Shown here piece after piece: positions 43,328 through 63,758 of a stretch of DNA of 64,000 nt. This stretch comes from Dehalococcoidia bacterium (lineage in GTDB: Bacteria > Chloroflexota > Dehalococcoidia > Dehalococcoidales > Fen-1064), in the NCBI GenBank assembly GCA_011171075.1, contig DUFD01000025.1, forward strand, positions 30,281 through 94,280. Direction: 5' to 3'. Positions within the stretch are counted from its first letter, which is position 1; each line of letters starts with the position of its first letter. Below the pieces are notes generated by a model, which worked only from the letters and a program-made list of their open reading frames with translations, was not told where the DNA came from and searched no databases. A program made the translations under genes and the position numbers.

Positions 43328-43350
43328 GGTCGTCTCCTTTCTAAAGGTTG

Positions 43351-45873: not shown

Positions 45874-47265
45874 TTATTTTCGTCTCCGCTTATCCAGCTT
45901 GTACCAGGGATGGAAGCTGACAATGCATTGAGAGCAAATGTTTTTGTCTACAGCTCCCTTAACGGTCATCTGTATCGCCATTAACTGGTCAGCAAGCCGA
46001 CTGGGAAGGAGAAAGTGCTCTTTCACATATTTCTTGCCTTTCTCTCCTATGGCTGTCGCAGCTTGTGGGTTCTCCAGTAAATAGAGAATTTTCTTTGCAG
46101 TTCTACGTGGAGTCTGGTAAAAGTAACCGGTATCGCCATCCCTTATCTGGAGGGGAATGGCGCCAACATCGGCGCCTATTACCGGTTTACTCTTCCACAA
46201 TCCTTCGGTAATCACCAGGCCGAAGCCCTCTTTGGTCGACGGTTGCATTATTACGCGTGCTGCCCGCTGGATGGCGTTCACCTCTCTAAAGTTTTCCAGT
46301 CGGTCTGCTTGCGAAAGATTGAGCACGTGGATGTCTTCGTCTTTTTTTGTGGCTTCATATATGTCGTTCAGGATCCTCTCCCCCTCAGGGTCATCGGAAG
46401 CTAAAGCTCCAGCTAATATTAACTGGCACCTTTTTTCTGCCCTGGCGAGACGGAAGGCAGCTATGGTCCTGTCTATTCCTTTCCAGGGGTCAAATCTTCC
46501 GATGTGGGCGATTATAGGGATGACAGGGTCTATCTGGTATCTGGCAAGAACTTCGTCAATCTTCTGTTGTGGCAGCTCCCGGTTTTTTTCAGAGAGCGGG
46601 TCAATGAAGGGCGGAATGATGAACTTTGGCAGGGGCCACTGCGAGACGATATAGTGTGCCGATGTGAATATGGCAGCATCATAGACATCAGTCCAGCCTG
46701 TGACAAAATCCCAGAGGCCAGGGTTATTTTCCAGAGTCTCCTCTTCAATATCAATATGACATCTCCAGAGCCATTTTTGCTCCGCTCGTTTAAGCCAATG
46801 GGCCAGGCCCAAAGGTTGCGGGTCATGCACCAGCACTACCTCGGGTTCATAATCGATAATATTGGCCTCACTGCATCTGGCGAGGTTGTCTGTATAGGTC
46901 TTCACCATCTCCCTGGTGAAGTCTCCCTCCATGCCCTGCAGCAGATTATGCAGGCTTTTCGTACACTCAAAGTATTCCTTATTACCCTGGATAATCTTCC
47001 ATTCGGCCTCGATGCCGAGCGCGTTCATCATGGGGATAGAGCTATAAAGCATCTCGGCGACTCCCCCACCCTGTGCGGTGGAATTTAGCTCCAGCAGCTT
47101 CAGGCCCTGCAACTGCTTGGCTGCTCTGAGGAGCCTTTCCATTTCTTCCTCACCCACAATGGCAGTATAGGCTTCTATCGGCGGTACTGACATGGGGCAG
47201 AAATTCTTTCTCTTGCTGTATACAGTCCCATCAGCCAAAGGCATAATGTTTTCCGATTCTACCAT
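45874..47265 (-). CDS. TreT-like GT4 glycosyltransferase, paralog 2
   Basis: LNSTAQGGGVAEML...WLWRCHID...PPFIDPLSEKN...GRFDPWKGI...KEGFGLVITEGLWKSKPVIG. The AAGGAG Shine-Dalgarno lies 6 nt before the ATG. Confidence 0.75.
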   Translation of the reverse strand: MVESENIMPLADGTVYSKRKNFCPMSVPPIEAYTAIVGEEEMERLLRAAKQLQGLKLLELNSTAQGGGVAEMLYSSIPMMNALGIEAEWKIIQGNKEYFECTKSLHNLLQGMEGDFTREMVKTYTDNLARCSEANIIDYEPEVVLVHDPQPLGLAHWLKRAEQKWLWRCHIDIEEETLENNPGLWDFVTGWTDVYDAAIFTSAHYIVSQWPLPKFIIPPFIDPLSEKNRELPQQKIDEVLARYQIDPVIPIIAHIGRFDPWKGIDRTIAAFRLARAEKRCQLILAGALASDDPEGERILNDIYEATKKDEDIHVLNLSQADRLENFREVNAIQRAARVIMQPSTKEGFGLVITEGLWKSKPVIGADVGAIPLQIRDGDTGYFYQTPRRTAKKILYLLENPQAATAIGEKGKKYVKEHFLLPSRLADQLMAIQMTVKGAVDKNICSQCIVSFHPWYKLDKRRRK

Positions 47266-47597: not shown

Positions 47598-49778
47598 ATG
47601 TCAAGGTTGATACTTGTTTCTAACCGACTACCTGTCAGTGTGGTTAAAGGTAGGAGAGGACTGCGTTTTGAGCGCAGTGTTGGCGGACTGGCCACGGGCT
47701 TGGGTCCGCTCAGTAAATCCTATAACAGTACCTGGATAGGATGGCCGGGTATTGACCTGGAGACGATGGGTAGTGAGGCGGATAATGCTGTCGCAAAGTT
47801 ACGCGCTGATGGATATTATCCCGTTTCCTTATCAGAGCAGGATATTGAAGGTTACTACCACCAATTCTCCAATGACACGATATGGCCTCTTTTTCACTAC
47901 TTCCCCATGTATGCAGTGCACGATGTAGATTCCTGGCGAGCTTACACGCGGGTCAACGAAGTTTTTGCTGACGCGGTTACTAAGGTTGCCAAAGACGGTG
48001 ATATCATCTGGATACACGATTACCACCTCATGTTGCTTCCGAGACTAGTCAGGAGGAAGCTGGAAAACGCAGCGATAGGTTTTTTCCTTCACATCCCTTT
48101 CCCATCTTTTGAGGTTTTTCGCCTGCTCCCCTGGCGGAACGAAATCCTGCAGGGAATCCTGGGAGCTGACCTTGTGGGCTTTCATACGTATGATTATGCA
48201 GGACATTTTCTTGATAGCGTACGCAATTTATTAGGCTATGATTCGACCATGGGGCAGATTACTGCTGACGACCGTGTGGTGAAGGTTGATATCTTCCCGA
48301 TGGGAATAGACTACCAGCGCTATTCTAGCGCTGCCCGGAATCGGCGGGTGAAGGCACAAGTACGGACGTTCCGCAAGACCGTGGGACGCCGTAAGGTTAT
48401 CCTGTCGATAGACCGTCTTGACTATACCAAGGGTATTCTCGAGCGTCTGGCGGCCTATGACCTTTTCCTGTCGAAGCACCCGGGACAGAGGGAGAAGCTG
48501 GTGCTTGTTCTGGTGGTAGTACCTTCTCGAACTGAGGTCGGGCATTATGCCCTGCTTAAACGGGAGATAGACGAGTTTGTTGGCGCAATCAACGGTAAGT
48601 ACGGTACCATTGGCTGGACGCCCATATGGTACCTGTACCGTTCCTTGCCTTTTTACTCCCTTGTAGCCATGTACAGTATGGCTGATATTGCGCTGGTTAC
48701 GCCTGTCAGAGATGGGATGAATCTGATAGCGAAGGAATATATAGCAGCTAGGTCGGATGGCAAGGGAGTCTTAATCCTCAGTGAGACTGCCGGAGCGGCT
48801 AGAGAGCTTGGGGAAGCTATCATAGTAAACGTTAACAATCAGGGAGAGATGGTACAAGCATTGGAAAGAGCCCTGGTAATGACGGAGGCGGAGCAGATAG
48901 AAAGCAACACGATGATGCAAAAACGCTTAATGCGCTATAACGTGAAGCGATGGGCAGATGAATTCATAGAAAGGTTGCTCCAGACCAAGAAATTCCAGGA
49001 AGAGATGGAAATGAGAGTACTGACTCCTGAGGCACAGAAGGAGCTGGTCAGTGATTATCTGAGGAGTGACCGAAGGTTGGTAATGCTTGACTACGATGGT
49101 ACGCTTGTACCCTTTTCTGGAAGGCCGGCAAAAGCAAAACCGAGCGACGAGGTTATAGCGTTGTTGCATGACCTCGCCGAGAACCCTAAAAATGAAGTGG
49201 TGCTTATTAGTGGACGTGAGAGAGAGACCATAGATGATTGGTTTCACGACTTAAATATTGGTCTGGTGGCTGAACATGGCGTGTGGATTAAAGACAAGCA
49301 CGGGGAATGGACACAATTAGCAGCACTGACAAATGACTGGAAGGATGAGGTCCGTCCCATTCTTGAGCTCTGTGTAGACAGGACGCCTGGTTCGTTGGTC
49401 GAGGAGAAAGAATTTTCCCTGGCCTGGCACTATCGGAGGTGCTGGCCTGCCCTCGGTGAAGTGCGGGCCAGAGAACTGGTGAACGACCTCTTACACCTCA
49501 CAACCAATCTCAACCTTCAGGTGCTGGAGGGTAGCAAAGTGGTTGAAATAAAGAATGCCGGTGTGAACAAGGGGCAGGCGGCCTCACGATGGGCATCTCA
49601 AGAAGAGTGGGACTTCATACTGGCACTGGGTGATGACCTGACTGACGAGGACGTTTTTCAGGCCCTCCCGGCACACACGTGGTCCATCAAGGTGGGTTTT
49701 GGGGCGTCTGGAGCCAGGTTTAATCTCGGCTTTCCGACCAATGTAAGGTCTTTGCTGAAGGAGATGAACGGGCTCTAG
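47598..49778 (+). CDS. otsA: Bifunctional trehalose-6-phosphate synthase/phosphatase (OtsA-OtsB fusion)
   Basis: GT20 N-terminal domain (LILVSNRLPV...GFFLHIPFPS...VTPVRDGMNL). C-terminal HAD domain (LVMLDYDGTLVP...LALGDDLTDED). Confidence 0.9.
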   Translation: MSRLILVSNRLPVSVVKGRRGLRFERSVGGLATGLGPLSKSYNSTWIGWPGIDLETMGSEADNAVAKLRADGYYPVSLSEQDIEGYYHQFSNDTIWPLFHYFPMYAVHDVDSWRAYTRVNEVFADAVTKVAKDGDIIWIHDYHLMLLPRLVRRKLENAAIGFFLHIPFPSFEVFRLLPWRNEILQGILGADLVGFHTYDYAGHFLDSVRNLLGYDSTMGQITADDRVVKVDIFPMGIDYQRYSSAARNRRVKAQVRTFRKTVGRRKVILSIDRLDYTKGILERLAAYDLFLSKHPGQREKLVLVLVVVPSRTEVGHYALLKREIDEFVGAINGKYGTIGWTPIWYLYRSLPFYSLVAMYSMADIALVTPVRDGMNLIAKEYIAARSDGKGVLILSETAGAARELGEAIIVNVNNQGEMVQALERALVMTEAEQIESNTMMQKRLMRYNVKRWADEFIERLLQTKKFQEEMEMRVLTPEAQKELVSDYLRSDRRLVMLDYDGTLVPFSGRPAKAKPSDEVIALLHDLAENPKNEVVLISGRERETIDDWFHDLNIGLVAEHGVWIKDKHGEWTQLAALTNDWKDEVRPILELCVDRTPGSLVEEKEFSLAWHYRRCWPALGEVRARELVNDLLHLTTNLNLQVLEGSKVVEIKNAGVNKGQAASRWASQEEWDFILALGDDLTDEDVFQALPAHTWSIKVGFGASGARFNLGFPTNVRSLLKEMNGL

Positions 49779-49835: not shown

Positions 49836-50681
49836 CTACTCTTGATTACGCTGCCTGTAGGCCTCAACATACCGCCTGGCAAACCTGTCACGACCAAGCA
49901 GAAGGTCAGCTGCCAGGATTACCGGACGGGATTTGGCCGCATCCGTTATCAGACAGGTCACGCCGGCGCCGATGGCCATGACTATGAAGGCATTATTCAA
50001 TGTGTCACGGTCAGGAAGGCCAAATGATACGTTGCTCGCTCCCAGTGCCTGGTTAACTCCCAGTTCTGACTTTACCCGGCTGATGGCCCGGATGACCTGC
50101 GGCCCGGCGCCCGTATCTGCCCCGATGGCAAAGGCGAGGCAATCGATAATAATATCTTCGCGGGGGATACCCAGCGCTCCGGCCTGTGTCACTATTCGGT
50201 GGGCTATCGATACCCGGCGTTCACTGTCCTTTGGAGGGCCTTCGTCGTCTTGCGCCAGGCCGATGACGGTCGCCCCGTATTCCTTAACTAACGGCAGTAT
50301 TTTCTCCAGCGATTCTCTCTCACCACTGACCGAGTTGATGAGCGGTTTGCCTTTGTAGACCTTTAAGGCTGCCTCCAGCGCCGCCGGATTGTCACTATCG
50401 AGACAGAGAGGTGCGTCGACTGTACCCATTAAGACCTGTACGGCTTCGGGGAGCAGGGTAGCTTCATCCACGCCGAAGGTGCTGACGTTAACGTCAATAA
50501 CATCCGCCCCGGCCTGTACCTGCGCCAGGGCCATGTTACGAACGACGTCCCAGTTGCCTTCCTTCAGTGCCTTGGCCAGCCTCTTGTTTCCCGAGGGATT
50601 GATACGCTCGCCGATGAGCACGGTCGGCCGGTCATCCCCGATAATGACTTCATTCGTGGTGCCTGTTACTCTGGTTTCCAT
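49836..50681 (-). CDS. Pterin-binding methyltransferase (methyl-corrinoid:tetrahydrofolate, AcsE/MeTr-like)
   Basis: LIGERINPSGNKRLAKAL...DVIDVNV...NSVSGE...SNVSFGLP matches the DHPS-like pterin-binding barrel of MeTr. Confidence 0.75.
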   Translation of the reverse strand: METRVTGTTNEVIIGDDRPTVLIGERINPSGNKRLAKALKEGNWDVVRNMALAQVQAGADVIDVNVSTFGVDEATLLPEAVQVLMGTVDAPLCLDSDNPAALEAALKVYKGKPLINSVSGERESLEKILPLVKEYGATVIGLAQDDEGPPKDSERRVSIAHRIVTQAGALGIPREDIIIDCLAFAIGADTGAGPQVIRAISRVKSELGVNQALGASNVSFGLPDRDTLNNAFIVMAIGAGVTCLITDAAKSRPVILAADLLLGRDRFARRYVEAYRQRNQE

Positions 50682-50698
50682 CGGTTAGTTTACCTTTA

Positions 50699-52039
50699 TT
50701 ATTTATATACGCCGTATTCCTTAGCGGCTTCCATCATGGCGCGCAGGTTATCCGGGGGTGCGCTGGTGACTGATGAGCCCGCTGATAGTATGTAGCCGCC
50801 ACCTGGGGCACAGATTTCAATCAGGTTGCGGCAGTATTCCTTGACCTCCTGGGCGGTGCCGGTAGATATCAGTGAGGCGGGCGCGTTTCCGGCAATGCAG
50901 CACTTGTCCCCGAGGACTTTTTTGGCGGTGGCCATATCCGTCTGGTCGAACCGCCAGGCGACCGCCCCCTTAGGGAACTCGTTGACCGTCTCCAGACGTG
51001 TCATGTAGCTCCCTTCGGCAAACAGTGAGGGTATAATGCCTTGGTCAACCAGGGCGAGACAGACTTTTCTCAGCGATGGCCAGTAGAAGGTCTCGAACTG
51101 CTTGGCCGACATGTAACCATCGGCACCTTTATGCAGCGGGAAGCCGATGGTGGTTCTCCTGAGGTCTTTCGCCCTTGAGAGCAACGAATCAATGGTCAGC
51201 TCCGTAATGACGTCAATGGCTTCAAGGAGCTTCTCCGGTTGACGGTACATGTCCATAATAATACCCCGGGTACCCCTCAGTGTGTCTCCGATGGTATCGA
51301 AGGGTGCCTTGGCCAGACCGGCCCCCCGGGGGGAGGGTATCCCCGCTTCCTGTGCCTCGCGGGTGCACTCCTCGACGACCGCCATCCATTTCGGGAACTC
51401 CTTACCGACGTCTATCAGTGCCTGGAGTGTTGCCTGGACATCAGGTCTCGCGAAGGGCATGAAGTAGGCGCTTGGTAGTTCGATAATGTCGGTGAAAGAC
51501 TGAAGGTGCCGGAAGGACTCGAATATGCCGAATATACGGGGCATATAGGTCCTCATCCAGAAATCAGATGGGTTCCTGATAAGGGCATCGTACTCGTCGG
51601 CCATCATATACTCGCCCTCAACAAACTGGTGCCCTTTGGCATCATCAGGAAGGCCGTGGCCCGGCCAGATGTAGAGTTTGTAGTCAATGAGGTCGTATAT
51701 CGTTCCCGGCATGACCGCGCCGGGGCCGGTATAGGTGTCCATCTCAAACTCATTGACGAACTTCTTCCACGCCCGGTGGAGCTTGTCGTAGTCATACATG
51801 ACCGTCTTAAGGTCGGTTCCAGCCCAGTACGCCGGTAAAACGCCGAAAGGCAGTTGCACCGGCACACGGTCGGGCTCTTTCATCAGATAGACGTCGGCCA
51901 GCCTCTGAAGCCTGCTGTAATAGGCTTTCTCAGCTTCCGGACTGGAAAAGTTGATGTCGGCCGGCTCAAGCGACCGTCTGAACCTTTCCTCTCTTTTTTC
52001 TTCAGGGGTCAGCTCTGCCCATTCTTTCGCTCTTTCCAT
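50699..52039 (-). CDS. URO-D-family methyltransferase (candidate substrate:corrinoid MT I), paralog A
   Basis: 446 aa. It is the tandem paralog of the next gene and lies in the corrinoid operon context. The family call is by resemblance to uroporphyrinogen-decarboxylase-like methyltransferases. Confidence 0.65.
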   Translation of the reverse strand: MERAKEWAELTPEEKREERFRRSLEPADINFSSPEAEKAYYSRLQRLADVYLMKEPDRVPVQLPFGVLPAYWAGTDLKTVMYDYDKLHRAWKKFVNEFEMDTYTGPGAVMPGTIYDLIDYKLYIWPGHGLPDDAKGHQFVEGEYMMADEYDALIRNPSDFWMRTYMPRIFGIFESFRHLQSFTDIIELPSAYFMPFARPDVQATLQALIDVGKEFPKWMAVVEECTREAQEAGIPSPRGAGLAKAPFDTIGDTLRGTRGIIMDMYRQPEKLLEAIDVITELTIDSLLSRAKDLRRTTIGFPLHKGADGYMSAKQFETFYWPSLRKVCLALVDQGIIPSLFAEGSYMTRLETVNEFPKGAVAWRFDQTDMATAKKVLGDKCCIAGNAPASLISTGTAQEVKEYCRNLIEICAPGGGYILSAGSSVTSAPPDNLRAMMEAAKEYGVYK

Positions 52040-52077
52040 GTTTCAATGCCTCTGTCCCGTTTTACCCTGGAAAATTA

Positions 52078-53409
52078 TTACCTGTATACGCCGTACTCCT
52101 TGGCGGCATCCATCACGGCACGCAGGTTCTCGGCGTTCGTCTCCGTGGCACTCGCCCCTCCGGTCAGTATATAGCCTCCACCCGGGGCGCAGATTTCAAT
52201 CAGTTTGCGACAGTACTCCTTAACGTCCTGCGCTGTTCCGGTGCACATCAGTGATGTGGGTATGTTACCCATAATGCAGGCGTTATCACCGATAACCTTC
52301 TTGGCGGTGGCCATATCTGTCTGGTCGAAGTGCCATATAGCCCAGCCCCTGGGCAGGTCCTTGATAACTTCAAGGCGTGTGAGGTATTTGCCCTCGGCGA
52401 ATAATGATACCATGATTCCCTCATTAATCAGGGCCATGATTACCTTCCTAAGTGTCGGCCAGTAGAAGGTCTCAAACTGCTTGGGAGACATGAAGGTATC
52501 GTCGCCTTTATGGAGGGCAAACCAGGCGGTGATACCACCGGAGGCATTCACTCCCTCAATCGCCCGTTCGATATTTATGTCTGCGATGAAGTCCATTGCC
52601 TCCAGAAGTTTTTCCGGCTGCCGGTACATGTCCATGATGATACCCTGTGTCCCTCGCAGGGCGTCTCCGATGGTATCGAAGGGCGCCGCCGCCGCACCAC
52701 ACTGTATGGACGGAAGCCCTATGGCAAGTGCCTCCCGGTCGCAGGCACTGACAGCCTCCCGCCATTTCGACATCTCTTTGCCGGCATCAATCAGTGCTTG
52801 GAATGTGGCCTGAACCTCCGGCCTCATGAAGGTCGGCACCATGTTCATCGGCCTCCCCAGCATGGATGAAAAGGGGGCAAACTTCTTGAGGGGCTCCAGT
52901 GCTCCCGCCAGTCGGGGCATAAGTACCCTGAAGGAGAAATCAGACGGGTCTTTCATCAGGGCGTCGTACTCGTCGGCCATCATGTACTCGCCTTCGACAA
53001 ACTGGTAACCCTTGACATCGGGGGCGAGTCCGTGCCCCGGCCATTTATATAGCTTGTAGTCGAGAAGTTCCAGCACTCTGGCAGCGTGGACGAGACCAGG
53101 ACCACGATACGTATCCATATCGAAGTCATGGATGAACTTGGTCCATGCCCTTCGAAGTTCGTCGTAATCATACATGACCTCCTGGAGCGTCGCACCGACG
53201 TAATAAGCCGGGAAGTTGCCCGATGGCAGCTGTACCGGCACCCTGTCCGGCTCTTCGCCACGGATGGCCTTGCCCAGCCTGGTTGCTCTTTCCTTGTAGG
53301 CTTTTTCGGCTTCAGGGCTGGCGAATTTCACTCCGGACGCTGATAACCACTTTTTAAACCTCTCCTCCCTTTTTTCTTCAGGGGTCAATTCTTCCCATTT
53401 TTTATCCAT
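52078..53409 (-). CDS. URO-D-family methyltransferase (candidate MT I), paralog B
   Basis: The start is moved to ATG 53409 (MDKKWEELTPEEKREERF), which aligns with the paralog A N-terminus. It overlaps the upstream stop by 8 nt. Confidence 0.65.
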   Translation of the reverse strand: MDKKWEELTPEEKREERFKKWLSASGVKFASPEAEKAYKERATRLGKAIRGEEPDRVPVQLPSGNFPAYYVGATLQEVMYDYDELRRAWTKFIHDFDMDTYRGPGLVHAARVLELLDYKLYKWPGHGLAPDVKGYQFVEGEYMMADEYDALMKDPSDFSFRVLMPRLAGALEPLKKFAPFSSMLGRPMNMVPTFMRPEVQATFQALIDAGKEMSKWREAVSACDREALAIGLPSIQCGAAAAPFDTIGDALRGTQGIIMDMYRQPEKLLEAMDFIADINIERAIEGVNASGGITAWFALHKGDDTFMSPKQFETFYWPTLRKVIMALINEGIMVSLFAEGKYLTRLEVIKDLPRGWAIWHFDQTDMATAKKVIGDNACIMGNIPTSLMCTGTAQDVKEYCRKLIEICAPGGGYILTGGASATETNAENLRAVMDAAKEYGVYR

Positions 53410-55258
53410 TTTCCAGCATCTCCCGCCTGTTATTCTTAATCCAGTACCTTCCCAGGTGGCCCGTTTCGATGAATATCTTTTTAAAATCCGGGTCGGTGGC
53501 CAGCTCGATATAGCGCGACCGGAACGTGGCTGCCTGCCCCTCTTCACGCTTCGCAAGAGAGATAAGGGCCAGCTTTGCCCCCATGCCGGCGGCGTTCCCC
53601 ACCTGGCGGAAACAATTCAAGGGTAGTGGCGGCAGAAGGCCGATAGTTACCGCGCTGGACAGGTCAAGATATGAGCCAAATGACCCGGCAATTACAACCT
53701 GCCCGAGCTGTTCCTCGGTGAAGCCATTCGTTTCAAGCAGGAGCTGGATGCCGGTACGAATGGCCGCCTTGGCCAGCTGTAATTCGCGTATATCTTTCTG
53801 GGTGAGGACGATTTCCGGATGCCCGTCCTGTTTTGTCTGGTCGACGAGGAGGAACTCGGCCTGGTTGCCCGTCATACGGACACGGGGGTGTTTATCAATC
53901 AGACGCCCGCCGTCATCGATAATTCCCGACAGATAAAGCTGGGCCACGGCATCGACGACTCCCGAGCCACAGATACCAAGCGGGGGTGCTTCATCAATGG
54001 TCTGGAAATCAATGACGTCCCCGGTTATTCGCAGTCTTTCAATTGCCCCTCTGGCAGCCCTCATACCATGTTTGATATGGCCGCCTTCAAAGGCAGGGCC
54101 TGAGGCACATGAAGTCGTGGTTATCCCTTGGCCGTTTACCAGGGAGATTTCGGTATTCGTGCCGATATCCAGGAATACAGTCAGTCCTTCGACCTGGTGG
54201 GTATTCGAAGCCAGCAACACGGCCGCGTGGTCGGAGCCGACGAAACCTGTTACCACAGGCGGAAGGTGGACGTATGCCCCCGGGGCTATCTTTATCCCCA
54301 GTTCACGTGCCTTAATATCGATAGCCATACCTGCCGCAGCCACAAAAGGAGTAAGCGCCAGCTGTTTTACCGGTAAACCGAGTAATAGATGGTGCATGGC
54401 CGTATTACCGACGACCACCATCTCGACAATCGCTTCAACATCGACACCAACCTCCGAACAGAGATTGGCGGCCAGTCCGTTCAATTTGTCCACGACCAGC
54501 TTTTGCAGTACTGCTCTTTTGTTCGGTCGCTTGACGACATAATTGATGCGGCTGATGATATCTTCCCCGTAGTCAATCTGGGGATTCATAGTCCCTTCGA
54601 CGGCCAGGGTCTGGCCGCTGCTCAAATCGACCAGATATCCAGCGATTGTGGTGGTGCCCAAATCTACGGCCAGTCCCAGCTGTTGACTGGGCCACGGGCT
54701 AACTGCTATTACTTCATCGTCACGTACCGCAGCCTGGCATTCCCAGTTCCAGTCACGTATCTGTGGCGAGAGGGAACGCAGCACGTTGATATCAATATGG
54801 CGACAGGGTAGCTGGTATTGCTCGTTCAGCGCTTCGAGCAGACGGTTGGTGTCAGCCTGCTGGTCGGATAACGATGGCGCCGTGAGCCGGATATGATAGG
54901 CTATGACAGCGGGTTCTGGAGGAACCGTCGCTTCCAGTCCCTCCACACAGATACGTTGCGAAGTGCTCATTGACTCCGGCGGGACTATTATCTGGCAATC
55001 GCTGCTCGGAATAGCCTGACAGGCGAGGCGCCAGCCGTCACCAAGCTCTTGGGCTGAAAGGGCTTCTAGTTCACTATCGGTGGGCTCGGATAGGGTACCG
55101 CTTATTACCTTCACGCGGCAGGTGTTGCATGTCCCACGCCCTCCGCATATACTGCTGATACCCACACCAAGTCGGTGTGCACAGTCCAGAAGCGACTCTT
55201 TCTCCCGGCACTCTCCTCTTTGTCCTAGGGGCTGAAAATCAATGGTGTATGATTTCAT
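53402..55258 (-). CDS. Corrinoid activation/regeneration protein (RACo-type: 2Fe-2S ferredoxin + ASKHA ATPase)
   Basis: N-terminal plant-type ferredoxin Cys pattern CGGRGTCNTCRV. A long ASKHA-like body follows (DLGTTTIAGY...DIGTNTEI...GSFGSYL). Confidence 0.8.
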   Translation of the reverse strand: MKSYTIDFQPLGQRGECREKESLLDCAHRLGVGISSICGGRGTCNTCRVKVISGTLSEPTDSELEALSAQELGDGWRLACQAIPSSDCQIIVPPESMSTSQRICVEGLEATVPPEPAVIAYHIRLTAPSLSDQQADTNRLLEALNEQYQLPCRHIDINVLRSLSPQIRDWNWECQAAVRDDEVIAVSPWPSQQLGLAVDLGTTTIAGYLVDLSSGQTLAVEGTMNPQIDYGEDIISRINYVVKRPNKRAVLQKLVVDKLNGLAANLCSEVGVDVEAIVEMVVVGNTAMHHLLLGLPVKQLALTPFVAAAGMAIDIKARELGIKIAPGAYVHLPPVVTGFVGSDHAAVLLASNTHQVEGLTVFLDIGTNTEISLVNGQGITTTSCASGPAFEGGHIKHGMRAARGAIERLRITGDVIDFQTIDEAPPLGICGSGVVDAVAQLYLSGIIDDGGRLIDKHPRVRMTGNQAEFLLVDQTKQDGHPEIVLTQKDIRELQLAKAAIRTGIQLLLETNGFTEEQLGQVVIAGSFGSYLDLSSAVTIGLLPPLPLNCFRQVGNAAGMGAKLALISLAKREEGQAATFRSRYIELATDPDFKKIFIETGHLGRYWIKNNRREMLENG

Positions 55259-55288
55259 ATCCTTCGAATTCTAGTTGAACCTGTCGGG

Positions 55289-55981
55289 TTATTTGGCTAC
55301 CAGCCTGTAATGACAGGTCTTACTGAGGTTGCAACGGGCACAGGCTTCGCCCTGTTTTCGGACGGTTACCTGCTCACCCAGGGCGATAACCATAGAGGCA
55401 GATTTGCGGGGAACCATTATTCCGGAAGGGGCCAATCTAACCCCTATTTCCTCCGACGGTACCAGTTGGAATAGCGGCCACTGCTCTGTAATCGGGAAGC
55501 CGGGTATGCCCGGACTGATGGGACTGCTTGACTGATAACCACGGAGTGACGCTTCATTCTGCATGAGCCTGCAGGTCTCCTGCACCAGCGAGTCCACAGC
55601 AGCACTTCCGATACCGTCGAGCAGCAGACCTCGTAAGGGCTCTCTACCACCGAGGTAATCTGTTACCTGTTTTTCCAGTTTGGGGCCAATTGTACAGACG
55701 GCTACGGTAAGTTCACGACCACCTGATATTAATGAAGAGAGCGACGCGCTTCGAATCTCCGTGCTATTGTCGAGTTGCACCGAATCATGGCCCACTTCGG
55801 ATATGGCGTAGACATCATAGGCGATAGCCGGTTCAAGGAGATGCTTGTCATAAGTGCTGGCCAGTAGCTCATCTATCAGGGCCATTATCTCAGGCTTGAC
55901 CGAGGATTGCTGCCTGATTCCCTCTCTGCGTAATACCTGCCTTTTATCAAGGCTGATGTGAATACCACTGACTATTGTCAC
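55289..55981 (-). CDS. Stand-alone MetH-activation-domain-like protein
   Basis: LLDGIGSAAVDSL...SPGIPGFPITEQ...PRKSASMVIALG and a C-terminal CARCNLSKTCHYR. The family call is from memory. Confidence 0.55.
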   Translation of the reverse strand: MTIVSGIHISLDKRQVLRREGIRQQSSVKPEIMALIDELLASTYDKHLLEPAIAYDVYAISEVGHDSVQLDNSTEIRSASLSSLISGGRELTVAVCTIGPKLEKQVTDYLGGREPLRGLLLDGIGSAAVDSLVQETCRLMQNEASLRGYQSSSPISPGIPGFPITEQWPLFQLVPSEEIGVRLAPSGIMVPRKSASMVIALGEQVTVRKQGEACARCNLSKTCHYRLVAK

Positions 55982-56034
55982 GTCTTTCTCTTCCTTAATG
56001 TGATTGCTCAGGTATGCTACTCATTCTAAGGGCT

Positions 56035-56658
56035 TTATATCCAGCCTTTGGCCAGTGAGACTGCTTTCATAGCATCCTGACCGTAGGCATCGGCACCCGC
56101 ATACTTCCGTATGTCCTCATCAATCTGGCCGCCGCCAATCATTATCTTCACCTTGTCTCGCAGTCCGGCCGCTTTTATTGCCTCCACTGTTTCCTTCATT
56201 GAGTCGAACGCCAGCGTTAAGAACCCGCTCAGCCCTACGATAGGTGCGTCGGTCTCCTTTATCTTATCAACGAATTTTTGAGGCGGCACATCCACACCGA
56301 GGTCGAACACTTCAAAACCGTTAACATCCAGCATGAATACCACGATGTCTTTGCCGATATCGTGTATGTCCCCGGCTACCGTACCAATAATACACTTGCC
56401 GGAGGTTTTTGCCTGCGCATCTTCTTTGAGCGCGGGTTTGATAATTTCGGTTATCTCTTTTAATATTTCGGCTGAATAAATAAGCTCGGGAAGAAAATAG
56501 GTACCATCGCTAAAGCGATTGCCTATTATCTCCATCCCGTTTCTACTCTCTTCAAGAATCGATTTTGGGTCTTCACCACTATCCAGTTTTTCCCTGGCAA
56601 GTCTGAGGGCCTCGTTTTCTTCCAAATCAGCAATCGCCTTGGTTAGCTCTCCACTCAT
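56035..56658 (-). CDS. Corrinoid (B12-binding) protein
   Basis: DxHxxG motif GDIHDIGKDIV, a Rossmann-like B12 domain, and an N-terminal helical cap. Confidence 0.85.
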   Translation of the reverse strand: MSGELTKAIADLEENEALRLAREKLDSGEDPKSILEESRNGMEIIGNRFSDGTYFLPELIYSAEILKEITEIIKPALKEDAQAKTSGKCIIGTVAGDIHDIGKDIVVFMLDVNGFEVFDLGVDVPPQKFVDKIKETDAPIVGLSGFLTLAFDSMKETVEAIKAAGLRDKVKIMIGGGQIDEDIRKYAGADAYGQDAMKAVSLAKGWI

Positions 56659-56759: not shown

Positions 56760-56788
56760 ATTGTAACCTCTGTAACAATCAGAGTCAA
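56760..56788 (-). promoter_or_regulatory. Candidate sigma70 promoter of the corrinoid methyltransferase operon
   Basis: On the minus strand: TTGACT, a 17-nt spacer, then TACAAT. It predicts a leader of about 95 nt ending in an AGGAGG Shine-Dalgarno before the ATG at 56658. Confidence 0.55.
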
Positions 56789-57080: not shown

Positions 57081-57156
57081 GGCGCATTCGTCTAGCGGTT
57101 AGGACACCTCCCTCTCAAGGAGGAGATCACCGGTTCGAATCCGGTATGCGCTACCA
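57081..57156 (+). tRNA. tRNA-Glu(CUC), CCA encoded
   Basis: Hand-folded cloverleaf. Acceptor GGCGCAT/ATGCGCT, anticodon stem CCTCC/GGAGG with loop CTCTCAA, T-loop GGTTCGAATCC. Confidence 0.85.
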
Positions 57157-57159
57157 TAC

Positions 57160-57189
57160 TTGACTTTTAACGGGGTGCGTTTCTATAAT
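57160..57189 (+). promoter_or_regulatory. Candidate sigma70 promoter P2 between tRNA-Glu and tRNA-Thr
   Basis: TTGACT, an 18-nt spacer, then TATAAT. Confidence 0.5.
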
Positions 57190-57230
57190 ACGCAAGTTCG
57201 AGATAGGGAAATCAGAGTATTACGAATGAT

Positions 57231-57304
57231 GCCTGAGTAGCTCAGTTGGTTAGAGCAGCTGTCTTGTAAACAGCAGGTCGAGGGTTCGAATCCCCCCTCA
57301 GGCT
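57231..57304 (+). tRNA. tRNA-Thr(UGU)
   Basis: Acceptor GCCTGAG/CTCAGGC. Anticodon stem GCTGT/ACAGC with loop CTTGTAA. There is one A-C mismatch in the T stem. Confidence 0.8.
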
Positions 57305-57330
57305 GGTAATAATGGTGGGTAGGAATATTC

Positions 57331-57417
57331 GGAGGGGTGCCGGAGTGGTTAATCGGAGCAGACTGTAAATCTGTCGCCCTAAGGGCTACGCAGGTTCGAA
57401 TCCTGCCCCCTCCACCA
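57331..57417 (+). tRNA. tRNA-Tyr(GUA), long variable arm, CCA encoded
   Basis: Acceptor GGAGGGG/CCCCTCC, anticodon loop CTGTAAA, variable arm CGCCCTAAGGGC. Confidence 0.85.
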
Positions 57418-57418
57418 C

Positions 57419-57447
57419 TTGGACTAAGAGTAATAATTCTGTATAAT
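57419..57447 (+). promoter_or_regulatory. Candidate sigma70 promoter P3 upstream of tRNA-Thr(GGU)-tuf
   Basis: TTGGAC, a 17-nt spacer, then TATAAT. Confidence 0.5.
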
Positions 57448-57460
57448 AAATAGAACCGGC

Positions 57461-57533
57461 GCCCACATAGCTCAGTCGGCAGAGCACGTTCTTGGTAAGA
57501 ACGGGGTCACCAGTTCGAATCTGGTTGTGGGCT
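57461..57533 (+). tRNA. tRNA-Thr(GGU)
   Basis: Acceptor GCCCACA/TGTGGGC. Anticodon stem CGTTC/GAACG with loop TTGGTAA. T arm ACCAG-TTCGAAT-CTGGT. Confidence 0.85.
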
Positions 57534-57555
57534 TGGATAAAGAAGGGGGTCTTTA

Positions 57556-58764
57556 ATGGCTAAGAAAAAGTTTGAGAGAACTAAGCCGCATTGCAACGTA
57601 GGTACGATAGGCCACGTCGACCACGGGAAGACAACACTTACCTCAGCAATAACACTGGTGCTGTCCAAGCAGGCCGGTGCTGCTACCGGCTTCCGGAGCT
57701 TTGATAGCATTGACAATGCTCCGGAGGAGAAGGCCCGTGGACTGACGATTGCCATCGCTCACATTGAGTATGAGACAGCAAAGCGGCACTATGCTCATAT
57801 CGACTGTCCTGGCCATGCCGACTTCATTAAGAATATGATTACCGGAGCCGCCCAGATGGATGGAGCGATTCTGGTGGTAAGTGCACCGGACGGCCCGATG
57901 CCCCAGACCCGGGAGCATATCCTGCTGGCGCGCCAGGTGGAGGTCCCCAGCATGGTCGTCGCCCTCAACAAGGTGGATATGATGGATGATGAGGAACTAC
58001 TCGAGCTGGTAGAGATGGAGCTCAGGGAGTTACTTTCCAAGTATAATTTCCCCGGCGACGAGATACCAATAGTGAGAGTGAGTGCCCTCAAGGCGCTTGA
58101 GTGTGGTTGCGGTAATCCAGAGTGTGAATGGTGTGGCCCTATTCTAAAGCTAATGGATGAAGTCGATGACTACATTCCAACGCCGGTTAGACCCAAAGAC
58201 CAGCCCTTCCTGATGTCAGTAGAGGATGTGTTCAGCATCAAAGGTCGCGGTACCGTACCCACGGGGAGAGTCGAGAGAGGTACCATCAAAGTAGGCCAGG
58301 AGGTCGAGATAGTCGGCCTGCACCATGAACCGCGTAAGACAGTGGTAACCGGCCTAGAGATGTTCCACAAGCTGCTTGACGAAGCTGAACCGGGTGATGC
58401 CATCGGTGCTCTGCTTAGAGGAGTAGAGCGTGCTGATATTGAGCGGGGACAGGTCCTGGCGGCGCCTGGTACTATTAAACCACACACCTATGCTGAGGGG
58501 CAGGTGTATGTGCTGAGCAAGGAAGAAGGAGGAAGGCATACCCCATTCTTTAATGGGTACCGACCTCAGTTCTACATAAGGACCACGGATATCACCGGCG
58601 CTATTGAGCTGCCAGAGGGTGTGGAGATGGTAATGCCCGGTGATAATATCACCATGAAGATAAAACTAATCTACCCGGTGGCTCTGGAGACGGGATTGCG
58701 ATTTGCGATTCGTGAGGGAGGTCGAACGGTAGGGGCTGGTACCTTTACCAAGATACTAGAATAA
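57556..58764 (+). CDS. tuf: Elongation factor Tu
   Basis: [18 protein letters not shown] and NKVD GTPase motifs, full length at 402 aa. Confidence 0.97.
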
Positions 58765-58768
58765 CAAA

Positions 58769-58936
58769 ATGGCCCGCAAAACTGAAGCAAGAGTTATTAT
58801 CCACCTTGCCTGTTCTGAGTGCAGGGAACGGACATATACGACAACCAAGAACCGGAGAAGCGATACGCAACGGCTTGAGCTGAATAAGTACTGTCCGCGC
58901 TGTCGTGTTCATACTGTTCACCGGGAAGTAAGGTAA
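58769..58936 (+). CDS. rpmG: 50S ribosomal protein L33 (Cys4 zinc-ribbon form)
   Basis: Not in the ORF track because it is under 60 aa. Hand translation gives [55 protein letters not shown]. The position between tuf and secE is conserved. Confidence 0.9.
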
Positions 58937-58952
58937 TCAGGGGCGAATAGAG

Positions 58953-59219
58953 ATGCCATCTTCCAGACGTTCCAGTGCTGCTACGAAGAAGTCGGTCGCT
59001 CAGGCGAGGCGCCCTGTCGTTGCTGCCAAGCGTCCTTCGAGGTTCAGGTTTATCACGGATACCATATCTGAAATGAAGAAGGTAACCTGGCTGACCCGCC
59101 GGGAGACTGCTTATCTTACTGGTCTTGTTCTCCTCGTTTCCATTACCGCGGGTGTTGTTCTTGGCCTGATTGATCTGGGCTTTAGTAGCCTGGTGGATAC
59201 ATTGCTTTTGGGTGGTTAA
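58953..59219 (+). CDS. secE: Preprotein translocase subunit SecE
   Basis: Basic N-terminus, FITDTISEMKKVTWLTRRE, and a single C-terminal TM helix. Synteny with nusG supports the call. Confidence 0.9.
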   Translation: MPSSRRSSAATKKSVAQARRPVVAAKRPSRFRFITDTISEMKKVTWLTRRETAYLTGLVLLVSITAGVVLGLIDLGFSSLVDTLLLGG

Positions 59220-59268
59220 AAAGCCTTTGACAGACAGGTATGCCTGGGGCTCCACGATTTTTTTCTGA

Positions 59269-59814
59269 GTGAGGGTACGCGTGAGCGAGAACGGGAAAGA
59301 ATGGTATGCAATTCATACCTACTCCGGGTATGAGGAACGGGTCAAGAAGAACCTGGAACAGCGGATTAAATTTATGGATTCTGAGGAGGAGATAGCCCAG
59401 GTTATTATACCCACTGAGGATGAAGTCGAGATTCGGGGTGGGCAGAGACGCACCATATCCAAGAAAATCTTGCCGGGCTACATTCTGGTGGAAATGGTCA
59501 TGACTGACCAGAGCTGGAATATTGTCCGCAATACCCCGGGGGTTACTGGTTTTGTCGGCAGCGGTGGAAAACCGGTCTCACTCTCCGAAGAGGAAGTAGA
59601 GCAGATACTGAAACAGATGCGTGCCGAAACTCCCAAGGTGAAGGTGGGTTTCCGGCAGGGGCAGAGCGTCCGCGTAACGGATGGGCCTTTCACCGATTTT
59701 GTCGGTATTGTCGATGAAATAGGTGCTGAAAAGGGCAAGGTAAAGGTTCTGTTGTCCCTTTTTGGGCGTGAAACACCGGTAGAACTCGATTTTCTCCAGG
59801 TGGAAAACCTGTAG
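59269..59814 (+). CDS. nusG: Transcription termination/antitermination factor NusG
   Basis: WYAIHTYSGYE NGN domain and a C-terminal KOW domain (GQSVRVTDGPFTDFVGIV). GTG start at 59269 or 59281. Confidence 0.93.
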   Translation: MRVRVSENGKEWYAIHTYSGYEERVKKNLEQRIKFMDSEEEIAQVIIPTEDEVEIRGGQRRTISKKILPGYILVEMVMTDQSWNIVRNTPGVTGFVGSGGKPVSLSEEEVEQILKQMRAETPKVKVGFRQGQSVRVTDGPFTDFVGIVDEIGAEKGKVKVLLSLFGRETPVELDFLQVENL

Positions 59815-59835
59815 TTACCTTGGAATGGAGGTAGT

Positions 59836-60264
59836 GTGGCAAAGAAGGTAATAGCTGTAATTAAACTGCAAATTGAAGCGGGTAAGGCAAACCCGGCACC
59901 GCCGGTTGGTTCGGCTCTGGGTCAGCACGGTATTAACATAATGGGTTTCTGCAAGGAGTACAATGACCGTACTTCCTCCCAGGCTGGGTCTATTATTCCC
60001 GCAGAGATAACTGTCTATGAGGACAGGTCGTTTACATTTCTTACCAAGACACCACCGACGGCAGACCTGCTGAAGAAGGCTATTGGAGTAGAGAAAGGGT
60101 CTGGTGCTACCGGACGCGAGCAACTGAATAAGCTGTCACGTGAGAAGCTCAAAGAGATAGCTGAGCAAAAGGCCAAGGACCTGAACGCCACCACTATCGA
60201 GGCTGCCGAACGGATTGTGGCTGGGACGGCGCGAAGTATGGGAATTGAGATAGAGCAAGAATGA
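59836..60264 (+). CDS. rplK: 50S ribosomal protein L11
   Basis: GTG start. The [35 protein letters not shown] signature is present. Confidence 0.95.
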
Positions 60265-60974
60265 CGAAGCATGGAAAGAGATACAGGGAAGCATATCAAC
60301 AGATTGATAGGGCTAAGTCTTATACGCCTGAAGAGGCTGTAGACCTTGCCAAGCGGACAGCATCCGTAAAATTTGATGAAACCGTCGAGCTGCATCTTAG
60401 GATGGGGCTCGACCCGCGTAATGCCAGCCAGCAGGTTCGCGGCGTTGCCCTGTTGCCGCATGGCCTTGGTAAGCCGGTTCGTGTTCTCGTTTTCGCCCAG
60501 GGCGAGGCTGCCAGGAATGCTGAGAACGCCGGTGCTGACTATGTCGGTGCTGACGAACTGGCCAAGAAGATTGAGGAAGGCTGGCTGGAGTTTGATACCG
60601 CGATTGCTACCCCGGAGATGATGAGCAAGGTGGGAAAGCTTGGCCGCGTTCTGGGAAGAAAAGGGCTGATGCCAAATCCGAAGGCGGGTACGGTTGTTAC
60701 GGCGGAAGAGCTACCCAGGGTAATTGAGGATGCCCGTAAGGGCAGGGTGGAGTTCAAACTGGACAGAACAGCTATCATCCACCTGCCTCTGGGTAAGGCC
60801 AGCTTTGATAGTGAAAAACTTATGGGGAACCTGTCGGCGATAATTGAGGCAATAGTCAAAGCAAAGCCAAGTGGCGCCAAAGGCCAATATATTAGATCTG
60901 CCTTCATCACCACGACCATGGGGCCCAGTATTAAGCTTGACCTTCGGCCAACCCTGGCGCTGGCGGCTGCTTGA
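60261..60974 (+). CDS. rplA: 50S ribosomal protein L1
   Basis: ATGA overlap with rplK. Typical L1 sequence ([17 protein letters not shown]...). Confidence 0.95.
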
Positions 60975-62490: not shown

Positions 62491-62534
62491 AATATAATTA
62501 AGTAGCAGAATAGATAATCAGGGAGGTAATGAAG

Positions 62535-63758
62535 ATGGCAGGAAGTATTAAGGATAGGGTGGCTGTGGCTGGTATGGGGTGCTCCAGGTTCGGGGAACGC
62601 TGGGATGCCAGTGTCGATGACCTGATTGTGGAGGCTGCCTATGAGGCTTTCGAGGATGCCGGCGTGGGACCAGAGGATATCCAGGCTGCCTGGGTAGGTA
62701 CCGCAACGGGTGGTACTGGTATGACAATATCCGAACCTCTACGGCTCCAGTACATCCCTATTACCAGGGTCGAAAATGCCTGTGCCACCGCTTCGGACGC
62801 ATTCCGCAATGCCTGCTATGCTGTCGCGGCCGGTATCTATGACATCGTGCTGGCTATTGGTTGCGACAAATACAAGGACAGTGGTCTCAGCGGCCTGACC
62901 GACGGCTCGATACCTGGTCCCGGTCATGGTCTGATGGCGGCTGCAGCTGGTCCGCCACCGGCGTCGTTCGCCATGCTGGCCACCACTTATTTTGACCACT
63001 ATGGCCTCAGCTATGAGGAAGGAAAGCATATGATAGGCCGGGTCTCATGGAAGAGTCATGAGAACGGTCGGCGACACAAGAAGGCGCACTTCCAGAGGGA
63101 AGTCACCATGGACGCAATCCTCAATGCGCCGATTGTTTCTTGGCCCTTGGGACTGTACGATTGCTGTGGCGTCAGCGATGGTGCGGCGGCAGCAATAATC
63201 ACGACACCGGAGATAGCCAAGAACATGCGCAAAGGCAAAGAGCCCCCCATGTTCGTCAAGGCTCTGCAGATTGCCATGGCACCTAATGATGGTAACTTTA
63301 ACACCAAGTTCGACTACATGCATGTTGAAGCTACCGTGAGGGCGGGCGATGCAGCCTACAAGGAAGCCGGCATAACCAATCCGCGCGAGCAGATAAGCAT
63401 GGCCGAGGTTCATGACTGTTTCTCAATCACCGAGGCAGTCACCATGGAAGACCTCAGGTTCAGCGAGCGGGGAAAGGTCCAGAAGGACATTGAGGACGGC
63501 TTCTTTGACCTGGACGGCGGACTGCCGGTGCAGCCGGATGGAGGCCTGAAGTGTTTCGGTCATCCGATTGGTGCTAGCGGAATACGGATGCTTTATGAGA
63601 TGTATAACCAGCTTCAGGGCAGGGCTGACCGGATGTTGAATCCAGGTCTGCCTTCCCGGCAGATAAAAGACCCCAAGCTGGGACTTACCCATAACCTCGG
63701 TGGTGGTCCGGCTGGTTGTGCCATTTTCGTGGGTATCGTTGGTCTTGAAGGGGTATAG
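62535..63758 (+). CDS. SCP-x/archaeal-type thiolase (acetyl-CoA C-acyltransferase family)
   Basis: Active-site region VENACATASDAF and C-terminal GHPIGASGIRM. The start is at the second ATG (62535), 8 nt after GGAGG. Confidence 0.8.
   Translation: MAGSIKDRVAVAGMGCSRFGERWDASVDDLIVEAAYEAFEDAGVGPEDIQAAWVGTATGGTGMTISEPLRLQYIPITRVENACATASDAFRNACYAVAAGIYDIVLAIGCDKYKDSGLSGLTDGSIPGPGHGLMAAAAGPPPASFAMLATTYFDHYGLSYEEGKHMIGRVSWKSHENGRRHKKAHFQREVTMDAILNAPIVSWPLGLYDCCGVSDGAAAAIITTPEIAKNMRKGKEPPMFVKALQIAMAPNDGNFNTKFDYMHVEATVRAGDAAYKEAGITNPREQISMAEVHDCFSITEAVTMEDLRFSERGKVQKDIEDGFFDLDGGLPVQPDGGLKCFGHPIGASGIRMLYEMYNQLQGRADRMLNPGLPSRQIKDPKLGLTHNLGGGPAGCAIFVGIVGLEGV

Follow-up and report, generated by a model that had tools for sequence, protein, structure and literature searches.

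The six genes at positions 49836-56658 (minus strand) of a 64,000-nucleotide stretch of DNA from a Dehalococcoidia bacterium (assembly GCA_011171075.1, contig DUFD01000025.1; the whole stretch is called the window here) very probably encode a corrinoid-dependent methyl-X:tetrahydrofolate methyltransferase, or demethylase, of the MtvABC/Odm/Mto/Cdm type. We put the probability of this system logic at about 0.9. In order of transcription, the genes encode a corrinoid protein (CP), a 230-residue protein related to the activation domain of MetH, a RACo-type reductive activating enzyme (AE), two methyltransferases I of the URO-D family (MT I a and MT I b) and a pterin-binding methyltransferase II (MT II). 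The substrates are fairly likely to be methoxylated aromatics (aryl methyl ethers) derived from lignin or humic matter, and the two MT I paralogues probably differ in specificity. The four-component architecture is already well known and is not new. What appears to be new is the assignment of these Dehalococcoidia genes to a distinct, extension-bearing subclade near MtvB, the very large size and mis-annotation of that subclade, and the accessory 230-residue protein with its unusual features.

The original prediction, made from the letters of the DNA, was of a six-protein minus-strand operon with the four-component logic of MT I, CP, MT II and AE. All six open reading frames (ORFs) are present at the predicted span, Pfam, NCBIfam and PDB searches agree with the predicted component classes, and comparisons of family, structure and motif identify every component of the set. 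In the proposed mechanism, MT I a and MT I b would each bind a methylated substrate and bring it up to the corrinoid of CP in its Co(I) state. CP would accept the methyl group to become CH3-Co(III), cycling between these two states, and MT II would move the methyl group from CP to tetrahydrofolate. Corrinoid that has been accidentally oxidized to Co(II) would be brought back to Co(I) by RACo, using ATP and a low-potential electron passed through its 2Fe-2S domain, and the 230-residue protein may hold or cap the cofactor during repair or loading.

The closest characterized relative of both MT I proteins is MtvB, the vanillate O-demethylase of Moorella. In BLASTP comparisons with the reference MT I sequences of Supplementary Data 3 of PMC13222342, MT I a is 32% identical to MtvB over 410 residues (E = 6e-69) and MT I b is 33% identical (E = 8e-71). 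Identities to MtoB are 27-33% (E = 1e-43 to 1e-58) and to CdmB 25% (E about 1e-39), and OdmB, VdmB, MecE, MecC, CmuA and UroD give only partial alignments of 21-37% identity with E values of 3e-11 or weaker. CdmB, described in May 2026, is a chloromethane-specific MT I that belongs with the O-demethylases MtvB and MtoB to one clade of the UroD superfamily (PMC13222342). A neighbour-joining tree, rooted on UroD and calculated from 402 trimmed columns with 200 bootstraps, places the window family in this "long MT I" clade together with MtvB, four Acetobacterium paralogues, CdmB and MtoB, with a bootstrap of 99%. Inside the clade, CdmB and MtoB form a group (92%), and the window proteins form a monophyletic group with their environmental relatives (88%); a sister relationship of the window subclade to MtvB has a bootstrap of only 36%. 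The MT I proteins are therefore members of the MtvB/MtoB/CdmB clade that form a subclade of their own, one without a characterized member.

Searches of solved structures lead to the same clade. CdmB (9RUI) is the sole solved structure that matches MT I strongly by sequence, with E = 2.6e-34 for a single window sequence. A profile of 35 family sequences aligns with it almost end to end (E = 1.4e-51) and reaches HemE with an E value of only 2.4e-5. MtaA, when looked for among PDB sequences with both the single sequence and the profile, gave no match at E <= 1. The Pfam URO-D model covers just the C-terminal half of both proteins. The AF2 model of MT I b, with a predicted local distance difference test score (pLDDT) of 91.8, is a UroD-like TIM barrel. 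A Foldseek search with this model against a copy of the PDB that lacks CdmB returned the UroD/MtaA fold, with TM-scores for UroD, normalized by the query, of 0.53-0.55. Assignment of the proteins to the MtaA/MtbA type was rejected, since they score only 28-39 bits on the corresponding NCBIfam models, which have cutoffs of 400-600.

In a comparison of active sites, the zinc-binding H-x-C motif of MecE, CmuA, VdmB and one Acetobacterium paralogue corresponds to F340-A341-E342 in the window MT I, and the third cysteine of the zinc site aligns to Ser or Ala. Because the His-x-Cys...Cys zinc site is replaced, the MT I proteins are not of the MtaA/MtbA type. The same motif is lost in MtvB (FFAEG), MtoB (LFEG) and CdmB (SFQG). 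It has been reported that His-Cys-Cys marks the S-methyltransferases of the UroD superfamily and that O-methyltransferases exchange the cysteines for carboxylates or non-ligands, and MtvB and CdmB are reported to be zinc-free (PMC13222342); the loss of the zinc site in the window proteins fits both reports.

At thirteen positions the window clade shows a conservation of at least 90%, MtvB and all three MtoB sequences have the identical residue, and CdmB differs. Among them, Q138 of the window protein is Phe in CdmB, D252 is Ser, H303 is Trp, E342 is Gln and R168 is Lys. The central cavity of CdmB is hydrophobic, aromatic and catalytically passive (PMC13222342). In the AF2 model of MT I, H303 comes just after the predicted strand 297-301 and E342 just after the strand 336-341. 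The active sites of TIM barrels sit at the C-terminal ends of the barrel strands, and in this model H303 and E342 are placed at the catalytic face of the MT I barrel. The polar set common to the ether-cleaving enzymes is the main argument for an O-methyl substrate. Since these polar residues are shared with the O-demethylases and replaced in CdmB, the substrate is probably an aryl methyl ether.

Several points weigh against this reading. The subclade has no characterized member; it is split from MtvB, MtoB and CdmB at 88%, its sisterhood with MtvB stands at 36%, and an identity of 32-33% is too low for a substrate class to be transferred. CdmB itself shows that the clade can switch from ethers to haloalkanes (PMC13222342). 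The tree is a distance tree of 402 columns, and some of its reference sequences are partial in their source. Genes of the Wood-Ljungdahl pathway, MetF and carbon monoxide dehydrogenase/acetyl-CoA synthase (CODH/ACS) were not found within the 64-kb window in a Pfam scan. MeTr-type enzymes are reversible. Opp/Dpp-type transporter genes near MT I genes, including those at 37266-42609 of the window, could just as well point to a substrate that is polar and not aromatic. It was said in the original prediction that the substrate cannot be read from the sequence, and with this we agree.

The partners of MT I are also closest to those of O-demethylases. CP matches the TIGR02370 model for a "methyltransferase cognate corrinoid protein" (E = 5.9e-52), has the B12-binding cap and Rossmann domains, and contains the motif D97-x-H99-x-x-G102. 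Its best solved relative is 4JGI (E = 1.4e-48), which we take to be the corrinoid protein of the Desulfitobacterium hafniense DCB-2 O-demethylase, followed by a Moorella cobalamin-binding protein. On PRK07535, which has a cutoff of 259 bits, MT II reaches 282. Its best solved relatives are 4O0Q, 4O1E and 4O1F (E = 2.7e-43), presumably structures of the MT II of the same D. hafniense O-demethylase, and then MeTr/AcsE and MetH. In an alignment with 4O0Q and 2YCK, the motifs LDSDN (residue 94), INSVS (115), IIDCL (178) and SNVSFG (216) are conserved, so that the predicted MeTr homologue does retain its pterin-binding motifs; to judge from the structures of MeTr and MetH, the Asp and Asn residues of these motifs are presumably the pterin ligands. 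Assignment of MT II as an AcsE equivalog was rejected: it scores 115 bits on NF040758, where the cutoff is 370, the window contains no genes for the corrinoid iron-sulfur protein (CoFeSP), ACS or CODH, and the closest solved relative is the MT II of an O-demethylase. In the CdmB paper, 4O1E and 4O1F served as the methyl-tetrahydrofolate and tetrahydrofolate templates for MT II (PMC13222342). A natural fusion of CP to MT I was found in the search of cluster representatives. In this protein (P0254, 692 residues), residues 6-211 are 48% identical to the window CP and residues 260-692 are 40-42% identical to MT I of the window family, which supports a direct partnership of CP and MT I.

The RACo-type activase matches all of the Pfam models Fer2, RACo_linker, Raco_middle and RACo_C_ter, and it aligns with RACo of C. 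hydrogenoformans (3ZYY) over residues 2-599 with E = 8.6e-106. Its N-terminal 2Fe-2S ferredoxin domain retains the cysteines C38, C44, C47 and C80, and the protein also has an ASKHA ATPase domain. On the NCBIfam AcsV model it scores 419 bits, under the cutoff of 800.

The 230-residue protein is 100% identical to NCBI G4O18_04740. It matches Pfam Met_synt_B12 (PF02965) only below threshold (E = 0.008; 16 bits, with a cutoff of 25), and TM0269 (1J6R), a stand-alone MetH activation-domain protein, with E = 5.7e-8. Its predicted model is of low confidence (pLDDT 61.5); all 19 significant Foldseek matches of this model are MetH activation domains, and the TM-score against 1J6R, normalized by 1J6R, is 0.69. 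The C-terminal 45 residues have a pLDDT below 50, and because of this low confidence no structural claim is made about the Cys-rich tail. A segment P-I-S-P-G-(I/M) of the family, P-I-S-P-G-I in the window copy, aligns with R-I-S-P-G-Y of TM0269, which is the R-x-x-x-G-Y segment that binds S-adenosylmethionine (AdoMet) in MetH structures. In the family alignment, C137 and a C-terminal C214-x-x-C217-x5-C223 are invariant and C96 is nearly so. This set of cysteines suggests a metal or Fe-S site that is not seen in the region aligned with TM0269. The description of the protein in the original prediction as MetH-activation-like holds for the fold and the match to 1J6R, but it left out the loss of the R-x-x-x-G-Y residues and the invariant Cys-rich tail. 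The protein thus appears to be activation-domain-like, and AdoMet-dependent repair is not assumed because of the altered R-I-S-P-G-Y segment and the Cys-rich tail. The family has 1063 matches, most of them annotated as "hypothetical". In three of the related loci (L003, L004 and L084) its gene is kept between those of CP and RACo, and this conserved place suggests a role with CP in activation or cofactor loading, as an accessory factor of the corrinoid protein.

The six ORFs (Table 1) are co-directional, and the ORF listing contains no better competing long ORFs in this region. The intergenic gaps of -8 to 53 nt, all on a single strand, fit one transcription unit, and the six genes are probably co-transcribed. 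The CP gene is preceded, at a distance of about 100 nt, by a sigma-70-like site. The start of MT I a was corrected to the ATG at 53409 (MDKKWEEL...), which replaces a listed TTG at 53556 inside the RACo gene; the ATG has GGGAG 10 nt upstream and gives an 8-nt overlap with the end of the RACo gene at its stop codon. An Rfam scan of the 422-nt leader/intergenic region gave only the neighbouring tRNAs and noise, with no riboswitch or other RNA element, and no intrinsic terminator was found 3' of the operon on the minus strand. An identical copy of MT I b is present on an "SMTZ" metagenome contig.

Table 1. Positions of the operon genes and of the putative promoter in the window
Feature	Position	Strand	Basis
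Candidate sigma-70-type promoter, TTGACT-17-TACAAT	56760..56788	-	Consensus scan, 10/12 matches; pattern match only
Corrinoid protein (CP), 207 residues	56035..56658	-	Pfam B12-binding and B12-binding_2
TM0269-like protein with MetH activation-domain fold, 230 residues	55289..55981	-	1J6R match, Foldseek
RACo-type reductive activase (AE), 618 residues	53402..55258	-	Fer2 and RACo domains
MT I paralogue a, 443 residues, MtvB-like, UroD superfamily	52078..53409	-	Pfam URO-D, E = 7e-28
MT I paralogue b, 446 residues, MtvB-like	50699..52039	-	60% identical to paralogue a
MT II, 281 residues, pterin-binding, MeTr/MtvA/OdmD type	49836..50681	-	Pfam Pterin_bind, E = 7e-31

Although the window MT I proteins share the clade of MtvB, MtoB and CdmB, they have distinctive features of their own. 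Relative to these three enzymes they have 33 additional N-terminal residues and an insertion of about 22 residues at positions 175-196, and they lack an insertion of about 26 residues that is common to MtoB and CdmB. The N-terminal extension contains the motif W(E/A)ELTPEEKREERF in both URO-D proteins. Among 35 homologues, T11, P12, K15, R19, F20 and L24 of the extension are at least 90% conserved, and residues 12-23 are confidently predicted in the AF2 model to form a helix. A strict regular expression for the motif proved too narrow (3/100), and alignment coverage was used instead; by this measure the extension is found in 133 of 140 full-length ORFs of the family from other genomes. It is absent from more distant cluster representatives of about 415 residues. 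The original prediction did not associate the extension with MtaA/MtbA-type enzymes, and in this it was right; the extension is absent from MtvB, MtoB and CdmB as well.

The MT I subclade is large. A word-indexed search gave more than 7900 MT I homologues, the top 120 of which are 60-93% identical to the window protein; those with a named source are metagenome-assembled genomes (MAGs) of Dehalococcoidales or Chloroflexota, and the source annotations read "uroporphyrinogen-III decarboxylase". An exhaustive profile search of representatives clustered at 50% identity gave 783, 2865 and 7112 matches at E <= 1e-30, 1e-10 and 1e-3, respectively. At least 568 loci in species-representative genomes encode MT I relatives. 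The best 80 of these at least 568 loci (50-91% identity) are all from uncultured MAGs, of Dehalococcoidales/Chloroflexota, Acidobacteriota, Deltaproteobacteria (Syntrophus, Syntrophorhabdaceae) and one Bathyarchaeia, and nearly all of the subclade genes are annotated as "uroporphyrinogen decarboxylase" or "hypothetical". Full-text literature searches on Dehalococcoidia combined with MtvB or O-demethylases returned no paper that treats this subclade. Earlier work describes bacterial-type MT I genes as widespread and as exchanged between bacteria and archaea, and in peat such genes have been reported from MAGs of 19 bacterial phyla, where Acidobacteriota express genes for methoxy compounds. Two candidate relatives were set aside: the "MtgB" MT I of Bathyarchaeia, about 300 residues long, belongs to an unrelated family, and the "mlp" clusters are different in being MtaA-like with a His-Cys-Cys zinc site.

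Gene order is partly conserved among the relatives. The full six-gene order of CP, the activation-domain-like protein, RACo, two MT I genes and MT II recurs in L004, and in L003 three MT I genes come after CP, the activation-domain-like protein and RACo, but no MT II gene adjoins them; the order is identical or similar in L003, L004, L005 and L039. Many Dehalococcoidales have arrays of CP, three to eight MT I genes and MT II. In L038, L040, L061, L037, L075, L078 and others, all from Dehalococcoidales/Chloroflexota MAGs, five to eight tandem MT I paralogues that are 41-59% identical to the window MT I are flanked by one CP gene and one MT II gene. MT I stands alone within about 8 kb in 52 of 78 loci. 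The recurrent neighbours in these 78 loci are Opp/Dpp-type ATP-binding cassette (ABC) transporter genes (SBP_bac_5, two permeases and a fused double ATPase; 10-15 loci), FAD-dependent oxidoreductases (11), short-chain dehydrogenases/reductases (9), carboxylesterases (8), molybdopterin oxidoreductases (7) and major facilitator superfamily (MFS) transporters (6).

These features of the subclade bear on what else the system might demethylate. The same architecture could serve other donors, such as O-methylated sugars, methyl ethers of pectin or algae, dimethyl sulfide, methylmercaptopropionate or polar osmolytes imported by ABC transporters, an alternative that we consider possible, if unlikely. 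It would agree with the separation of the subclade from every characterized enzyme, with its own N-terminal extension and 22-residue insertion, and with the recurrence of SBP_bac_5/Opp-type genes beside MT I in 15 of 78 loci, MFS transporters in six loci and an Opp-type transporter 7 kb downstream in the window itself. The tandem arrays, with up to 7-8 MT I paralogues, imply a chemically diverse substrate pool. The adjacency of Opp-type transporters may hint at an imported polar substrate or may be due to chance, since such transporters are very common in these genomes. However, the residues Q138, D252, H303 and E342, shared with MtvB and MtoB, argue for ether-type chemistry, and the His-Cys-Cys zinc site of the S-methyl enzymes of the superfamily is absent. 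N-methyl compounds are normally handled by MT I enzymes of the MttB, MtmB and MtbB types, which are not UroD-type.

A tentative and rather improbable extension of this idea is that the subclade as a whole harvests methyl groups from unrecognized polar compounds of sediments and soils (O-methylated sugars or oligosaccharides, methylated peptides, osmolytes) and not from aromatics. It is based on the charged N-terminal helix of 33 residues, the 22-residue insertion, the arrays of up to eight genes and the frequent Opp/Dpp neighbours. Were this the case, anaerobic methylotrophy on substrates outside those assayed so far would be a major activity of uncultured Dehalococcoidales, Acidobacteriota and Deltaproteobacteria.

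The aryl ether reading also has to be weighed against a Cdm-like haloalkane system, in which MT I would act as CdmB does and direct chloromethane or another methyl halide towards Co(I). Assignment of the window proteins as CdmB-type enzymes was rejected, and a haloalkane function is improbable: CdmB is only 25% identical, it groups with MtoB (92%) and apart from the window clade, the window MT I lacks the 26-residue insertion of CdmB and MtoB, and it retains polar residues where those of CdmB are hydrophobic. The homologue set defined in the CdmB paper comprises sequences of at least 40% identity with a hydrophobic central cavity (PMC13222342). A dissolved gas, moreover, needs no binding-protein transporter. 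What can be said for a haloalkane substrate is that CdmB is the only strong match among solved structures and lies within the same 99% clade, and that methyl halides are present in marine sediments. A repeated origin of haloalkane enzymes in the superfamily has also been proposed (PMC13222342). A haloalkane system would tie non-respiratory Dehalococcoidia to the turnover of methyl halides.

Since the reactions of MeTr are reversible, the flow could in principle be biosynthetic, with methyl-tetrahydrofolate donating to CP through the MeTr-like enzyme, and CP donating to an acceptor through the URO-D proteins, as a split, MetH-like system, or to a core methionine synthase (MesB/core-MetE) encoded elsewhere in the genome. 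Each module of MetH has its counterpart in the gene set (a pterin-binding domain, B12 cap and Rossmann domains, and a homologue of the activation domain), and the core-MetE of Dehalococcoidia is thought to depend on a methylated corrinoid protein as its donor. Even so, reverse flow is very improbable. Thiol-methylating enzymes require a zinc site, which is missing from the URO-D proteins, and these proteins group with MT I enzymes that demethylate and not with MtaA or MetE. In addition, no methionine-related gene is present in the operon or in the 64-kb window, and arrays of up to eight paralogues fit catabolic diversity better than a single biosynthetic acceptor.

That the URO-D genes are genuine HemE genes, with B12 genes beside them by coincidence, has a negligible probability: the source annotations name this enzyme and UroD is the best structural match in the PDB copy without CdmB, but the proteins reach only 24-30 bits on TIGR01464 (cutoff 303), are 16% identical to B. 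subtilis UroD, which is an outgroup in the tree, match the Pfam URO-D model only in the C-terminal half, have modest UroD TM-scores and are embedded in an operon with CP, activase and MT II, and the closest fold of CdmB itself is UroD (PMC13222342). The original prediction would have failed had the URO-D proteins grouped with HemE or had the MeTr homologue lacked its pterin-binding residues; neither is the case, and the nearest characterized enzyme is MtvB.

The surroundings of the operon were also surveyed. Divergent from it, at 57081-60974 (plus strand), are genes for tRNA-Glu, tRNA-Thr, tRNA-Tyr and tRNA-Thr, followed by genes that, judging by sequence, look like tuf, secE, nusG, rplK and rplA. 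The operon therefore borders core housekeeping genes and does not lie in a recognizable mobile island. Farther along, at 61063-63758 (plus strand), a protein of 475 residues with a ketoacyl-synthase-III-like C-terminal domain and a ChsH2/DUF35-type oligonucleotide/oligosaccharide-binding (OB) fold is followed by a thiolase. The two resemble the archaeal-type thiolase/HMG-CoA synthase/DUF35 arrangement, with two of the parts fused here.

Immediately downstream of the operon are three adjacent genes of trehalose synthesis, at 44035-45333 (minus), 45874-47265 (minus) and 47598-49778 (plus). They encode two paralogous trehalose synthases of the TreT type and a fused OtsA-OtsB (Glyco_transf_20 and Trehalose_PPase), the latter being convergent to the operon. 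The Opp-type ABC transporter genes (37266-42609, minus), 7 kb downstream of the operon, have directly upstream of them a gene (42626-43372, minus) whose product is a fusion of an FmdE domain and a C4 zinc finger of the DksA/TraR type. Positions 1-33636 form a large island of surface-glycan biosynthesis, with at least nine genes for SAM-dependent methyltransferases, glycosyltransferases of the GT1, GT2 and GT4 types, NeuB and a cytidylyltransferase (nonulosonic acid), two DegT aminotransferases, an asparagine synthase, a radical-SAM/SPASM protein, a flippase and membrane proteins with DUF2206 and DUF1616. The GC content of the island dips to 0.43-0.45 at 20-26 kb. Between the island and the transporter genes are a protein of 564 residues (33960-35654, plus) whose sole match is to the FkbH N-terminal domain and an ORF of 380 residues (36092-37234, plus) with no Pfam match. 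The GC skew is strongly positive at 32-36 kb.

One main route by which lignin-derived methyl groups enter one-carbon metabolism under anaerobic conditions is the corrinoid-dependent demethylation of methoxylated compounds, a process that competes with methylotrophic methanogenesis. In the window, a non-cultured sediment lineage of Dehalococcoidia holds a complete and self-sufficient system of this kind. Characterization of one member of the subclade would make it possible to re-annotate thousands of genes and would help to quantify bacterial methyl harvesting in sediments, peat and groundwater.

The known systems differ in how much of the window arrangement they share. The O-demethylase MtvABC of Moorella thermoacetica, which acts on vanillate, guaiacol and dicamba and whose MT I, MtvB, is WP_011391929, has the same partner set of CP and pterin-type MT II. 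MtvB and the window MT I proteins have the motifs PLH(K/R)G, FAEG and APFDT(I/L)GDTLRG in common, and both are without the His-Cys-Cys zinc site and the insertion of MtoB and CdmB. MtvB, however, has neither the 33-residue extension nor the insertion of about 22 residues at 175-196, and the window operon, unlike MtvABC, also encodes an activase and a TM0269-like protein. The Odm and Vdm systems of D. hafniense DCB-2 and Acetobacterium dehalogenans follow the same four-component logic with clustered genes, but OdmB and VdmB are enzymes of about 320-330 residues from a different branch of the UroD superfamily, and they match the window MT I only weakly, with E values of 1e-9 or worse. OdmB of D. 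hafniense is 18% identical to the window MT I in the multiple alignment, and VdmB-type enzymes keep the H-x-C motif that the window MT I lacks.

In MtoABCD of Methermicoccus shengliensis and Archaeoglobus fulgidus, MtoB belongs to the 99% clade and has Q138, D252, H303 and E342 in common with the window proteins, but it has the insertion of about 26 residues shared with CdmB, lacks the N-terminal extension and groups with CdmB. The archaeal Mto MT II delivers the methyl group to tetrahydromethanopterin (PMC13222342 among sources), whereas the window MT II is of the bacterial MeTr/tetrahydrofolate type. CdmBCA, the chloromethane dehalogenase/methyltransferase of A. dehalogenans (PDB 9RUI), has the same set of MT I, CP and MT II, with a zinc-free MT I of the same clade. 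In CdmB the four polar residues are replaced, an insertion is added and the N-terminal extension is absent, and the enzyme acts on haloalkanes, not on methoxylated aromatics (PMC13222342). Finally, TM0269 of Thermotoga maritima (1J6R) resembles the 230-residue protein in being a stand-alone protein of about 200-230 residues encoded beside a gene for a B12-dependent methyltransferase, but the window protein has a CxxCx5C tail and C137, a P-I-S-P-G-I segment, and RACo as its partner instead of MetH.

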